A DNA stretch of 45,311 nt from a virus (IMGVR_UViG_3300015608_002795:64001-109311), one strand, 5' to 3'; positions 24,448-45,153 are shown, counted from the stretch's first letter. Notes: a model not told the origin generated them from the letters alone. Numbers and translations are program-made.

Positions 24448-24738
24448 ATGATTAAAAAATGTAGATGTAAAAGCACAATGTCCGTATGTCAATCTATGTC
24501 AGATGGTGATTGGGAGGACGTTTTTGTTAAAGATAAATGGTATGATGTAAATCATGTTGAATGGTCTAATGATCCAGTACATGATTTAAAAATGCGCAAA
24601 ATAAATGGTGGGTGGAGAGACTACTTAGCTATGACAGAATTTGGAACGTGGAGACAACTGACTAGATCTGATTTTAATATTATATTTTATTCCGATGTGG
24701 AACTAAGAGAAGCTTTAATTAATGATATTCTCTTATAG
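24448..24738 (+). CDS. Hypothetical small protein with C-terminal tag LREALINDIL
   Basis: ORF track; tag shared with other small ORFs. Confidence 0.6.
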   Translation: MIKKCRCKSTMSVCQSMSDGDWEDVFVKDKWYDVNHVEWSNDPVHDLKMRKINGGWRDYLAMTEFGTWRQLTRSDFNIIFYSDVELREALINDILL

Positions 24739-25275
24739 AGAATATTGAACCTTCTCACCATTACTCATTGAATAAACAACCTTATCTATATTTGTAAATT
24801 TCTTTCTATAACCACTTGATAAATACTTATCAGCAGAGCCTGGTTTAACAAAAGCGATTGTCATATGTGGTTGGTAATCTGGATAATCATTTGTGTGTGG
24901 TAATTTTTTCAATTCTTTATTTATTTCGTGTAAGAGAGGGGAATCAACATTTAATTTAACCACACTAAATTTATCATCATCATCAAATTTTCCTATCCCA
25001 TCAATAGAGATGTCAATATCTCTACCCTTAAATTTAGTCAAAACATTCTCAACATCTTCTTTAGTTACGTCAGAATGTAATCCATATAGTAAAGTTATAT
25101 GAGGACTTTTTTCAATTCCATAAGTCGGATCAGATGGTTTATAAACATCATCGATATTTATAATAGATGTTATTTCTTTCCAATTTTCTACCTTTGGATA
25201 TATCATTACACATCCGTATTTGTATAGGTTTCCACTTTTTACATTTTCTAAAAATTCGTCAAATTTTTTAATCAT
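24733..25275 (-). CDS. 2H phosphoesterase (LigT-like), Acb1/T4 gp57B-like
   Basis: Two HxT motifs, PHITLLYG and YPDYQPHMTIAF; THDF.DY.PH.T-like segment of Acb1. Confidence 0.8.
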   Translation of the reverse strand: MIKKFDEFLENVKSGNLYKYGCVMIYPKVENWKEITSIINIDDVYKPSDPTYGIEKSPHITLLYGLHSDVTKEDVENVLTKFKGRDIDISIDGIGKFDDDDKFSVVKLNVDSPLLHEINKELKKLPHTNDYPDYQPHMTIAFVKPGSADKYLSSGYRKKFTNIDKVVYSMSNGEKVQYSL

Positions 25276-25279
25276 AAAG

Positions 25280-25846
25280 TTATTTTTTCTTCCTTCTTTT
25301 ATTTTTAGATGTATTTGAAGTTGTTTGATCTAAAAAATAAGTTTTAAATGGCTTCAACCTTTTAAGATTCCAATTCGGTTCAAACTTTTTATTGCTTCTT
25401 TCGTAATCTTGTATTGATTCGACTCCAGTATCAATTGGATTACTAATATATTGAATATTAGCTCCTTGTTTATTCATATCACTGATTCTATCTCCAATAT
25501 CAGTTCCTTTAGACATTTTTCTAACCATTTTTAATTGGTCTACAGTATGTTGCTGAGCAAGTGACTCAAACTCACTTAGTAAAATCATTACATCTTCCTC
25601 ATCATCCTCGATAAATTCTGCTAAACATTTTTCATCTACAATATTAACCACTTCTCCAATTAATTGTACTGCGGTTTGTATATACTTTTCACCATCCTCA
25701 TCTATTAAAAAATCATAATTGACATTTGGATTATTATTAATAATATTAATAATCTTAGTTTGTACAGTGCCCGCACTTCCTCTAATGAACTGTTCCCTTT
25801 TAGTTGGATCTTCTGACTTTACTCTTATACTAATAATACTTTTCAT
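25280..25846 (-). CDS. Hypothetical late protein; start moved to ATG 25846
   Basis: TAATATATA motif at 25852-25860 sits 5 nt upstream of this ATG. Confidence 0.55.
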   Translation of the reverse strand: MKSIISIRVKSEDPTKREQFIRGSAGTVQTKIINIINNNPNVNYDFLIDEDGEKYIQTAVQLIGEVVNIVDEKCLAEFIEDDEEDVMILLSEFESLAQQHTVDQLKMVRKMSKGTDIGDRISDMNKQGANIQYISNPIDTGVESIQDYERSNKKFEPNWNLKRLKPFKTYFLDQTTSNTSKNKRRKKK

Positions 25847-25851
25847 AATCT

Positions 25852-25860
25852 TATATATTA
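25852..25860 (-). promoter_or_regulatory. Putative late promoter TAATATATA
   Basis: Exact motif 5 nt upstream of an in-frame ATG. Confidence 0.5.
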
Positions 25861-25863
25861 TTT

Positions 25864-26268
25864 TCATGAAGTGCAAAAGTCAATGTGTATCCAAACTGCC
25901 GAATATATAGGCTGATTGTCATCTGTAAATTTATCATATGAATAATCGCCATGATACTCTTGATCCTGAATCCAGGATAAAAAACATATTTGCGCATACT
26001 TTTTCATTCTATTTACAAATGATTCCATATCTTCCTTAAACTCATCTATTGTTGAGGTGTTAACTTTAGATTCAATAATTGTACCATCCTCATACTTTGC
26101 AAATTCAACCATTAATAAATATCTTCCTTTACTTTCACAATGAACCCGATCACATTTTATATCCCACTTTTCCTTATACTCTAAAAAAAGATCTTTAATT
26201 AATTCCTCATCAATATCCTCATTCTCTCCATAATTTTCGAACAAAGAATATTTTAATAAGTGTTTCAT
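25864..26268 (-). CDS. Hypothetical acidic protein with a capsid-targeting-like leader (MKHLLKYSLFEN); start moved to ATG 26268
   Basis: The upstream ORF extension overlaps the + strand gene at 26288; a promoter motif precedes ATG 26268. Confidence 0.65.
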   Translation of the reverse strand: MKHLLKYSLFENYGENEDIDEELIKDLFLEYKEKWDIKCDRVHCESKGRYLLMVEFAKYEDGTIIESKVNTSTIDEFKEDMESFVNRMKKYAQICFLSWIQDQEYHGDYSYDKFTDDNQPIYSAVWIHIDFCTS

Positions 26269-26275
26269 ATTACTA

Positions 26276-26284
26276 TATATATAA
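26276..26284 (-). promoter_or_regulatory. Putative late promoter TTATATATA in a divergent intergenic gap
   Basis: 7 nt upstream of ATG 26268. Confidence 0.5.
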
Positions 26285-42606: not shown

Positions 42607-42642
42607 ATAATAACTCCTTAATAGTTAAGGTATTTGTATGCC

Positions 42643-42650
42643 TAAACTTT
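42643..42650 (+). promoter_or_regulatory. Recurring motif TAAACTTT
   Basis: Intergenic, upstream of ATG 42693. Confidence 0.3.
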
Positions 42651-42692
42651 GTTGTATTTTTTTATAAAATATAAAAGTATAATTACGAACAT

Positions 42693-43181
42693 ATGAGAAT
42701 ATTAATTAAACCAAGTGATATAGTCAAGAGGTGCCTATGGGACTCCTATTCCTACTATATTGTTGGATCAGAAAAAGAAGCTGAAAAATTACTTAAGGAA
42801 GATAATGAATTTGAACTCTCGGAGAGGGATGCTATTGTTTTAGGACTATTAAAAGTTATGGAAACTGATAATTTGGTCCACCGATTTAATGACTACATGG
42901 TTCATTTTTTAACAATTAAATCAATTAAAGAAAAAGATGATGTTATTGTTAGAAAGAAGTCAGTAGAAATTGCAATTGATAAATTTTTAGATAAATTTCC
43001 TGATTATTGGGTACCTCCAGCTAATTATGCCAATGCAGTAAAAGACTTGGTTGATTACATAGATAGTTTGAAAGAGAAAATTGAAACATTGGAGGTGACA
43101 AAAGTCACCATTCAAAATATGATTCAAGAAGTATATGTTTCAAATGCGGTAAGAAAATTGTTAAACTTCAATGTATATTAA
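42693..43181 (+). CDS. Hypothetical protein
   Basis: ORF track; no recognised motif. Confidence 0.6.
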   Translation: MRILIKPSDIVKRCLWDSYSYYIVGSEKEAEKLLKEDNEFELSERDAIVLGLLKVMETDNLVHRFNDYMVHFLTIKSIKEKDDVIVRKKSVEIAIDKFLDKFPDYWVPPANYANAVKDLVDYIDSLKEKIETLEVTKVTIQNMIQEVYVSNAVRKLLNFNVY

Positions 43182-43313
43182 ATGCAAACAACAGATATCT
43201 TAGAAAGAATAATTGAATTAGTTAAGGAATATCCTAATGATTCAGAATTAGGATCCAAAATTAGAGCCCTTTATTGGGAATATAAAGAAAAATTAAATGA
43301 TGATGAAGAATAA
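43182..43313 (+). CDS. 43-aa small protein (not in ORF track) of the YPND-x-ELG-x-KIR type
   Basis: Manual translation: [43 protein letters not shown]; the ATG directly follows the upstream TAA. Confidence 0.65.
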   Translation: MQTTDILERIIELVKEYPNDSELGSKIRALYWEYKEKLNDDEE

Positions 43314-43731
43314 AGTTGAAAAAGTTACCAAAGAAGAATTTGATTCAGTAAAATCTGAATTAAATGACAAGTATGTAAGATTATATGCTGAGTTTGAAAA
43401 CTATAAAAAAAGAACTCAAAAAGAAAAAGAAGATATTAAAAACTTCACGAAACTTGAAACACTTGCTGTTATTTTAGATGTTGATAATGATTTATTTATT
43501 GCTTCTAATAAAGTAAAAAATGAGGGTGTCAACCTTATTTTATCCAAATTAGATAAGTTTTTAAAATCTCAGGGAATTGAGTCAATTCAAAATGAGAAAT
43601 ATGACGCTGATGTACACGAAGTGATATCTGTTGTCGAGACTGGTAAAGAGGGAATAGTTGAAGTTGTCAGTAAAGGATACAAACTAAACGGAAATGTAAT
43701 CAGACATCCTAAGGTAATATTAAGTAAATAA
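43297..43731 (+). CDS. grpE: GrpE nucleotide exchange factor (short form lacking the long N-terminal tail)
   Basis: [42 protein letters not shown]...V. Confidence 0.92.
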
Positions 43732-43736
43732 ATCAA

Positions 43737-45050
43737 ATGCGCAATATTTATAATTCTATTGGTAGAAATGTTGATGTTTTATTGGGTCTTCAATGGGGAG
43801 ATGAAGGCAAAGGAAAATTAGTTGATTTTATCACCCCAATGTATGATATAGTCGCTAGATTTCAAGGTGGATCCAATGCTGGACACACAATTATCATTAA
43901 TGGTGAAAAATCAGTACTACATTTAATTCCCTCTGGAATTTTTAGAGACAACTGCAGTAACCTCATTGGCAATGGTGTTGTTATTGACCCAATTGCACTC
44001 AAGAATGAAATTGCAAAATTAGAATCGATTGGTGTAGATGTTAAGAAGAAACTTTTTATTTCAAAAAGAGCGCACCTTATCATACCAACACATAGACTCT
44101 TAGATAAAGCTTCTGAAATTAATAAAGGGTCTTCCAAAATAGGATCTACACTTAAAGGAATAGGACCTACTTACATGGATAAAACTGGTAGAAATGGTAT
44201 TCGTGTTGGTGATATAAGTCAGGATCTTAAAAATAAATTTACTAACCTTACAAATAAACATAGAATATTATTGGAGAATCTCAACTATACAATTGATGAA
44301 TCCGAATTTAAAATAGAAGAAGACTTGTGGTGGGAATCACTTACTTTTTTAAGTACTTATAACATTGTCGATTCAGAATATTTTATTAATGACGCTATCA
44401 GTAGTGGAAAAAGCATACTAGCAGAGGGAGCTCAAGGATCACTATTAGACGTTGATTTTGGATCATATCCGTTTGTAACCTCGTCTAATACAACTATTTC
44501 TGGTGTAATATCAGGATTGGGAATTCCACCACAATCAATCGGTAATGTGACCGGTATATTCAAAGCATATGCTACTAGGGTTGGATCAGGTCCCTTCCCA
44601 ACAGAATTGTTTGATGAGACCGGAGAACTAATTAGACAAAATGGTCATGAATTTGGATCAACAACTGGTCGCCCAAGAAGGTGTGGGTGGTTAGATATCC
44701 CAACTTTAAAATATGCCATTATGCTAAATGGTGTTACTGAATTAAATATTATGAAAATTGATGTTTTATCTAAATTAGATAAGATAAAAATTTGTATTGG
44801 ATATGAAGTGGATGGTGTCATTTCAGAAAAAGTTCCACTTGATATAGAACAATCTGTTCCAGTTTACACAGAATTTGATGGTTGGAAAGAAGATGTAACA
44901 CAAATTAAAAATTGGGAAGATCTTCCGATTCAACTTAGGAGTTATATTTATTTTATAGAAGACTTAGTAAGAGTTCCAATTAAAAGAATTTCAGTAGGTC
45001 CAGATAGGGAGCAAACAATTAGTAGGTATTCCAGCTCGGTAGCTGAATAG
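43737..45050 (+). CDS. purA: Adenylosuccinate synthetase (canonical PurA)
   Basis: [83 protein letters not shown]. Confidence 0.96.
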
Positions 45051-45153
45051 GGATTTTTCTAGATTTTCTAGGTTTCTTTTTTGGTTTAGGTTGAACCTCT
45101 ATTTCCTTTTTTTCCTTATCGAATGTGAATTCTTCAAATTTCTTTAATCTCAT
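45019..45153 (-). CDS. 44-aa basic micro-protein (not in ORF track) with a capsid-targeting-like leader MRLKKFEEF
   Basis: Manual translation: [44 protein letters not shown]; late motif 4 nt upstream; overlaps the purA tail. Confidence 0.65.

Follow-up and report, generated by a model that had tools for sequence, protein, structure and literature searches.

The stretch of DNA analysed here (the window, 45,311 nucleotides, IMGVR_UViG_3300015608_002795:64001-109311) is the final 45 kb of a linear IMG/VR viral contig of 109,311 bp, and several of its genes begin with a short leader peptide. These leaders are amphipathic N-terminal peptides of 10-12 residues that end in Glu followed by a small or polar residue. 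The tag exists as a modular element, is linked to a promoter-like motif and is selected at the peptide level. We regard it as probable (roughly 0.6) that the leaders are capsid-targeting propeptides of the type known from bacteriophage T4, in a system that is greatly expanded and includes a second leader class. By analogy with T4 the tagged proteins would be docked, cleaved, packaged and injected. T4-like capsid targeting had been proposed in an earlier note on this DNA, a reading that is partly supported by our analysis.

The contig is about 39% complete according to CheckV and has a guanine-plus-cytosine (GC) content of 29%. Among named phages, the closest relatives are LR756502.1 (642 kb) and LR745206.1 (635 kb), two huge uncultured phages that share about 70% nucleotide identity with it across a 5-kb block.

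Leader peptides and the promoter-like motif

All six leader-like peptides named in the earlier note, five N-terminal and one internal, were recovered from the window. The single consensus K-x-[FYW]-x-x-F-x-E put forward for them did not hold, since it matches only two of the five N-terminal cases; there are two classes instead. Type A leaders follow the pattern MK[HY][LI]KxYKIFE[SN], with shorter forms such as MKHLKKFNES, and type B leaders the pattern M(x)IK[KR][YFW]x[EQ]F[ILV]xE. An aromatic or hydrophobic pair three positions apart is present in both ([YFW]5 and F8 in type B, Y7 and F10 in type A), and every leader closes with hydrophobic-x-Glu, the next residue being in most cases Ser, Asn, Gly, Asp or Ala.

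For the search, loose regular expressions were replaced by a position matrix trained on the leaders of LR756502.1 alone, with which all 3844 open start codons of the 109-kb contig were scored. Seven of the ten best hits lie within 40 nucleotides (nt) of the promoter-like motif, compared to 56 of the 3844 start codons overall (odds ratio 180, p = 1e-11), so that the expected co-occurrence of leader and promoter was borne out on the scale of the contig. An AT-rich composition, in which Lys, Phe, Asn, Ile, Tyr and Glu are common, combined with Met-Lys starts could produce such a similarity as a by-product. The low GC content is in line with this explanation, and so is the poor separation obtained with the loose regular expression on this contig (8 first versus 9 internal ATGs). 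However, the independent matrix places its top scores at gene starts behind the promoter, the same loose expression matched 129 of 908 first ATGs but only 56 of 3577 internal ATGs in LR756502.1 (p = 3e-50), and the leader outlasts the protein body in orthologues. Composition or chance is therefore essentially excluded.

The two highest matrix scores of the contig were obtained for the starts at 29623 and 26268, both opening with type A leaders. The leader MKYIKLYKIFES (MKYIKLYKIFE/S, the slash following the leader Glu) is encoded at 29623-29658 on the plus strand, begins with GTG rather than ATG and exhibits the top score of the whole contig (28.1). The respective gene (29623..31269, plus strand) encodes a 548-amino-acid (aa) protein for which profile searches and an ESM Atlas look-up gave no family match; its orthologues start with MKYLKLYKLFES, MKYIKLFES and MNYIKQYKIFE. 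The leader MKHLLKYSLFEN (MKHLLKYSLFE/N), encoded at 26233-26268 on the minus strand, ranks second among the 3844 candidates with a score of 25.5. Its ATG at 26268 is an internal one of the mechanically called open reading frame (ORF), but is likely the true start because the motif TTATATATA (26276..26284, minus strand) is located 7 nt upstream. The gene (25864..26268, minus strand) encodes a 134-aa protein of unknown fold without a Pfam or PHROG family match. ESM Atlas look-ups of two cargo proteins of the window returned no named family.

Two further leaders are type-B-like. MIKKFDEFLEN (MIKKFDEFLE/N, encoded at 25243-25275, minus strand) starts at the ATG at 25275, the first ATG of the ORF 24733-25275. 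MLKSWNMFNES (MLKSWNMFNE/S, encoded at 36377-36409, plus strand) belongs to the gene 36377..36823 (plus strand, 148 aa) and starts at the second ATG of its ORF. We chose this ATG as start because a distant homologue begins directly with MIKNWEVFNE; this is the most distant of the homologues, which retain the leader. The score of the 36377 leader with the LR756502.1-derived matrix is low. The fifth N-terminal case, MRLKKFEEF, opens a 44-aa ORF with a very basic remainder (45019..45153, minus strand, ATG at 45153), which overlaps the 3' end of purA on the opposite strand. With a type-B matrix score of 5.9 and no homologue found in LR756502.1 it is a weak member, and it is uncertain whether it is a real gene.

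As described in the earlier note, the motif T(A/T)ATATATA lies directly upstream of four of these leaders, at a distance of 4-25 nt, and the fifth leader gene is part of such an operon. Besides TTATATATA in front of 26268, the form TAATATATA was detected 4 nt before the GTG at 29623 (29610..29618, plus strand), 25 nt before the ATG at 36377 (36343..36351, plus strand) and 4 nt before the ATG at 45153 (45158..45166, minus strand). The leader gene starting at 25275 begins 4 nt after the upstream gene of its operon (25280-25846, no family match), the ATG of which at 25846 is preceded at a distance of 5 nt by TAATATATA (25852-25860, minus strand). The motif is about 3-fold over-represented. It is also found upstream of the portal and gp5-like hub genes of LR756502.1 and of the endolysin and head-tail adaptor genes of the window, and the close variants GAATATATA and CAATATATA precede the capsid-protein and protease genes in a relative. 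Leader genes therefore have the same promoter motif as structural and lysis genes, and we take TAATATATA to be a putative late promoter. Further copies in the window are located at 26837(+), 28012(+), 28817(+) and 38093(+).

In the contig as well as in LR756502.1, the spacing between TAATATATA and the start codon is bimodal (4-8 nt or 17-28 nt); the short spacing would give leaderless or near-leaderless mRNAs. Structural genes show the long spacing, and the short one occurs mostly at leader genes and at genes of GIY-YIG endonucleases.

We also considered Sec, Tat or lipoprotein signal peptides and rejected them. The leaders are 10-12 residues long with alternating charged and hydrophobic residues and a Glu at the end, and they have no uninterrupted hydrophobic core of about 7-15 residues following a basic N-region. 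True lipoprotein-type signals of the contig, e.g. MKKSILLLCLLIGG..., look different from the leaders.

Modularity of the tag and selection on the peptide

The whole of LR756502.1 was examined and contains about 147 leader genes, approximately 135 of type A and at least 12 of type B. After trimming of 16 residues, the 153 leader proteins of LR756502.1 (147) and the contig (6) fell into 120 BLASTP clusters, 112 of which were singletons; the proteins carrying the tag are therefore unrelated. The cargo changes quickly, as a counterpart in LR756502.1 could be recognised for only 3 of 16 leader proteins of the contig. In the more distant LR756501.1 (735 kb, of which the first 400 kb were examined) the leaders are mostly of type B. 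Seven further leader genes lie on the contig outside the window, starting e.g. with MIKRYNEFVFEN, MKHIINFKLFEG, MKYLSSFKIFEG, MRYIKKYESY, MKHLQKFNE and MITRFENFVNES.

Among orthologues, the leader is more conserved than the protein body. At the same time, its synonymous codons vary: His is encoded by CAT (10) or CAC (9), Leu by TTA (15) or CTA (11), Lys5 by AAA (9) or AAG (9) and the leader Glu by GAA (17) or GAG (15), and Ser is derived from both TCN and AGY. Varied synonymous codons at conserved residues indicate that selection acts on the peptide.

Alternatively, the conserved start might be mainly an RNA element, the mRNAs being leaderless and the first codons serving translation initiation. 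This explanation would account for the bimodal spacing, with tagged genes mostly in the short class, and for a third-position A that is favoured at leader codons 4, 6 and 9 (0.71, 0.77 and 0.55, compared to about 0.44 in other genes). In the strict type-A set of LR756502.1 codon 9 is nearly always NTA, and the other synonymous sites are free. Yet the residues are kept despite synonymous and even first-base changes (TTA/CTA, TCN/AGY), leaders are also present on the operon-internal gene at 25275 and where the spacing is 17-28 nt, and 41 untagged genes with short spacing lack such an A bias at these codons. Furthermore, the leader types resemble each other in physico-chemistry, not in nucleotides. 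We consider an RNA element as the main cause very improbable. The preference for A may reflect an additional constraint at the RNA level or a matching to phage tRNAs.

Strain variants suggest that leaders are exchanged as cassettes, although each breakpoint rests on single contigs and is thus weak evidence. Contigs from other wastewater samples diverge from ours inside the leader at 26261, where a different body follows from codon 4 (MKHLKLFENSSD...) while the promoter stays the same. A second point of divergence coincides exactly with the promoter at 29610, where another promoter-plus-leader cassette is inserted. Such behaviour recalls the internal-protein locus of T-even phages, which is polymorphic. 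The internal peptide RIKKFESFEN (38503-38532, plus strand) lies in frame inside the gene 38107-38706, with neither a Met nor a promoter upstream, and is probably the relic of two fused leader cassettes or an internal cleavage site. The contig gene 3962-4975 offers a parallel: it is a fusion, and its C-terminal half corresponds to a 172-aa protein of LR756502.1 that bears a leader, the match beginning at this leader.

Relation to T4 capsid targeting and the head module of relatives

The sequence MKTYQEFIAE begins two T4 genes. The first 10 residues of the T4 leader suffice for packaging, residues 4 and 7 being involved in targeting and residues 8 and 10 in processing, and the protease gp21 cleaves after L/I-x-E (PMC9026906). 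Related T-even phages possess diverse proteins with such sequences (PMC9026906, PMC3012670). Type B leaders keep all four important T4 positions (aromatic-x-x-F-[ILV]-x-E). Type A leaders share with T4 the terminal Glu and the two aromatic residues at a spacing of three. As in the T4 internal proteins IPII and IPIII (IPI is similar), a short peptide at the extreme N-terminus is attached to unrelated, hypervariable cargo. The propeptides of T4 gp24, gp67, gp68 and Alt and the sites in gp22 are likewise short with a hydrophobic-x-Glu end, the scaffold being cut at many sites (PMC9026906).

The phages phiKZ, 201phi2-1 and SPN3US have large heads, too, in which a gp21-related protease trims tens of internal proteins after Glu (PMC10052503, PMC9026906). 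They differ from the clade studied here by the motif S/A-x-E and by mostly long propeptides (111-254 residues) that share no short tag. Virion proteomics exists for these three phages, whereas our clade is read from its genes alone. In a literature search we found no paper describing the leaders reported here.

A gp23-type capsid protein was identified by Pfam match in LR756502.1 (95.9 bits) and LR745206.1 (88.7 bits), and a gp21-type protease accompanies it in the relatives as it does in T4. Just upstream of the capsid-protein gene of LR756502.1 there is a 700-aa ORF (225272-227371), of which the first approximately 190 residues align with T4 gp21 (E = 2e-4), including both the catalytic His (ELNHP / EFDHP) and Ser (VSSRG / VSSRA). 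The remainder is scaffold-like and contains ten 14-residue tandem repeats NI[SA]Y[SA]EY[IL]AE[NSH]LDK; the repeat type is identical in LR756502.1 and LR756501.1. The unit Y-S-E-Y-[ILV]-A-E-[NH] recurs about 11 times in the protease-scaffold of all 80 IMG/VR relatives sampled (80/80). The exact back-translated type-A pattern was found on IMG/VR contigs that overlap with those carrying the protease gene of the clade. Unlike gp21 and gp22 of T4, protease and scaffold are fused, and the strict 14-residue tandem repeat is copied almost exactly by the type-B leader. The shared pattern can be seen in Y-N-E-F-V-F-E-N of MIKRYNEFVFEN, compared to Y-Q-E-F-I-A-E in T4. The clade encodes a gp21-like prohead protease and a scaffold in one protein of 700-800 aa with a predicted cleavage site in each repeat.

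The capsid protein contains the stretch ...EYAE[FY]HSINE/NAYVNAS, which is invariant in 76 relatives and ends like the leaders FINE/S and YNE/S. We read SINE/N as the putative maturation site of the capsid protein because it resembles T4 ...E/IGGDHGYNATNIAAG, a reading based on this local likeness and on the invariance. In a MAFFT alignment of a relative's capsid protein with T4 gp23 the T4 cleavage site was not convincingly placed, and a single-sequence search of solved structures with the capsid protein and the protease of a relative gave nothing useful.

Leader proteins are also found within the head module itself. A 157-aa protein (MKHLRKFEE...) is encoded immediately before the portal gene in 42 loci; in 50 loci the capsid-protein gene is closely followed by the gene for a 172-aa protein (MKLKNYKELFE...). 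In both proteins the leader is far better conserved than the body. A short way downstream of the capsid-protein gene of LR756502.1 and behind the putative late promoter there is, in addition, a gene for a 458-aa protein of a PHROG 'peptidase' family (229975-231351, E = 3e-64), a candidate for a second protease in the head module.

The likeness between leaders, scaffold repeats and capsid-protein site also bears on the possibility that the leader is a docking tag for a partner other than the capsid, e.g. the Hsp70 system of the phage or another late structure. The window contains genes for DnaJ and GrpE and LR756502.1 one for a full DnaK, and the hydrophobic leader residues flanked by Lys or Arg presumably resemble Hsp70-binding peptides. 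A chaperone site, however, need be neither located at the extreme N-terminus nor terminated by Glu and a small residue, and such a partner explains neither the four T4 positions nor the resemblance to the scaffold repeats and the capsid-protein site. A non-capsid partner is accordingly quite unlikely.

T4-type capsid targeting is the best-supported reading of the leaders. The modular tag, the hydrophobic-x-Glu end, the T4 positions in type B, the promoter shared with structural genes and the head module of the relatives argue for this part of the earlier proposal. The missing part of the genome presumably holds the same head module as that of the relatives. The tagged proteins would be made late from the TAATATATA promoter, as would the structural and lysis proteins. 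The leader would then dock its protein onto the assembling scaffold core, which in the relatives comprises the gp21-like protease and about 11 YSEY[ILV]AE/N repeats, the unit copied by type B. The capsid shell would close around the core and the docked proteins, the protease would cleave after the leader Glu, and the trimmed proteins would be retained inside the head and probably be delivered to the next host along with the DNA. With the type-B leader as a copy of one scaffold repeat, there would be a concrete docking model, which is still lacking even for T4.

Several observations weigh against capsid targeting of the T4 type. Type A is the dominant class (MKHLKxYKIFES) and, apart from the shared features mentioned above, is unlike the T4 sequence and has no T4 counterpart. 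Position P3 of the leader is I, L or V in many cases and F or Y in many others (FLE, FNE, YNE), compared to Leu or Ile at T4 sites. The match of the 700-aa ORF to Pfam Peptidase_S77 reaches 22.7 bits, below the curated cut-off of 27. No protease, scaffold or capsid-protein gene was found on the 109-kb contig, a fragment covering about 39% of the genome, and we found neither a cultured member nor a virion proteome of the clade. The leader proteins are acidic (median pI 5.1 versus 5.7), whereas T4 internal proteins are basic. Furthermore, 118 of the 753 ORFs of at least 100 aa in LR756502.1 are tagged (about 16%), a very large cargo list compared to the handful of tagged proteins in T4. The third-position A at leader codons and the small number of cargo proteins with an effector-like function (see below) point in the same direction.

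Cargo proteins and further genes of the window

One cargo protein of the window is encoded by the gene 24733..25275 (minus strand, 180 aa), which matches the Pfam families 2_5_RNA_ligase2 (PF13563) and Acb1 (PF23474). The motifs H59-x-T61 and H137-x-T139 are invariant in 32 sequences. In the AlphaFold2 (AF2) model the core shows a predicted local distance difference test (pLDDT) score above 90; residues 1-16 are below 50 and form a detached helix of low confidence. Foldseek gave a probability of 1.00 to phage and viral phosphodiesterases (9q2y/9q2g, Acb1 7t27). Further best fold matches were the rotavirus VP3 2'-5' phosphodiesterase and the poxvirus cGAMP phosphodiesterase, and RNA-repair and 2'-5' RNA ligase-like enzymes were also among the matches. 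The protein shares both H-x-T motifs and the 2H fold with solved Acb1 and viral 2H phosphodiesterases. Its identity to the structural matches is only 14-20%, with TM-scores of 0.5-0.6, and no such leader aligns in these matched structures. By motif and predicted fold, it is an Acb1-like 2H phosphoesterase. In its 97 relatives we detected one conserved core, starting from ...Y-x-YGCVM, preceded by a type B leader, a type A leader, a third type (MIKLKELLNES) or no leader.

Outside the window, the contig also carries a gene whose leader is followed by a complete YoeB-type toxin domain (a YoeB-like RNase). Of 20 leader proteins sampled from LR756502.1, 17 showed no family match; the tagged proteins of this phage include a phage lysozyme, a DUF4314 protein and one whose weak match to DHH falls below the Pfam cut-off. 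Most cargo proteins have no homologues, and only two on the contig, one of them in the window, exhibit a recognisable effector-like function. Of the varied set of injected effectors suggested in the earlier note, the tag on many unrelated proteins is supported, and an effector-like function was recognised in these two. The cargo fits an arms-race kit.

The leader could also be a protease-cleaved prohead propeptide on proteins that serve mainly in assembly or as part of the core, as T4 gp67 and gp68 do, or that reside in the head and are not injected. Consistent with this, conserved leader genes neighbour the portal and capsid genes within the head module, 17 of the 20 sampled leader proteins of LR756502.1 contain no enzyme domain, and leader proteins share their acidic character with scaffold and core proteins. 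Most leader genes, however, are dispersed or form clusters at a distance from the head module and show rapid turnover among relatives, and neither an immune-evasion-type phosphodiesterase nor a toxin-type RNase has an obvious role in assembly. We regard assembly or head-resident material as the main cargo as unlikely.

If the leaders work as in T4, a genome alone would list the proteins of a huge phage that enter the cell before gene expression. In this clade they would be more than 100 carried proteins, a rich source of candidate anti-defence factors, and the Acb1-like enzyme of the window would be a counter-defence enzyme delivered pre-made. The leaders would also offer short tags to load foreign proteins into very large capsids. 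Only tentatively do we suggest the possible wider scenario, in which a Bacteroidota-infecting clade sends about one sixth of its proteome (more than 100 unrelated, fast-evolving proteins) into the capsid via two interchangeable leader classes that mimic one scaffold-repeat unit. The phages might thereby inject a kit for counter-defence and takeover (Acb1-like phosphodiesterase, YoeB-like RNase, lysozyme and many unknowns), with cargo gained by cassette exchange at the leader.

DNA of the window recurs in metagenomes from wastewater, activated sludge and rivers, and the expected host is a member of the Bacteroidota living in activated sludge. RNA-library runs containing it were rejected as transcript evidence, since they gave long, evenly covered contigs across both strands, which looks like DNA carry-over. 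Among cultured phages matching window DNA, Bacteroides phage SJC03 was the only one checked; it has no gp23-type capsid protein and was rejected as a cultured model for this reason.

Besides the leader genes, the window encodes an adenylosuccinate synthetase (purA), GMP-reductase-like, NADAR and ATP-grasp proteins, an endolysin, a head-tail adaptor and a gp32-type single-stranded-DNA-binding protein. Genes for DnaJ (34585-35625, minus strand), GrpE (43297-43731, plus strand), IF3 (41374-41904, plus strand) and a ribosome hibernation factor (42310-42606, plus strand) were present, too. Judged from these genes and the DnaK of LR756502.1, the clade appears to have its own Hsp70 system and translation factors. 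Two genes resemble homing endonucleases of the GIY-YIG type (28830-29612 and 40091-40834, both plus strand), judged by eye from their starts MNTYIYTL...YIGK and MIIYKITN...YIGQ, respectively. The first of them is preceded by TAATATATA 4 nt 5' of its ATG, and its end abuts the promoter of the leader gene at 29623. A 134-aa ORF (23984-24388, plus strand) resembles, by eye only, an isolated fragment of a methionyl-tRNA synthetase (...KYCVGCESF... WFDAL...).

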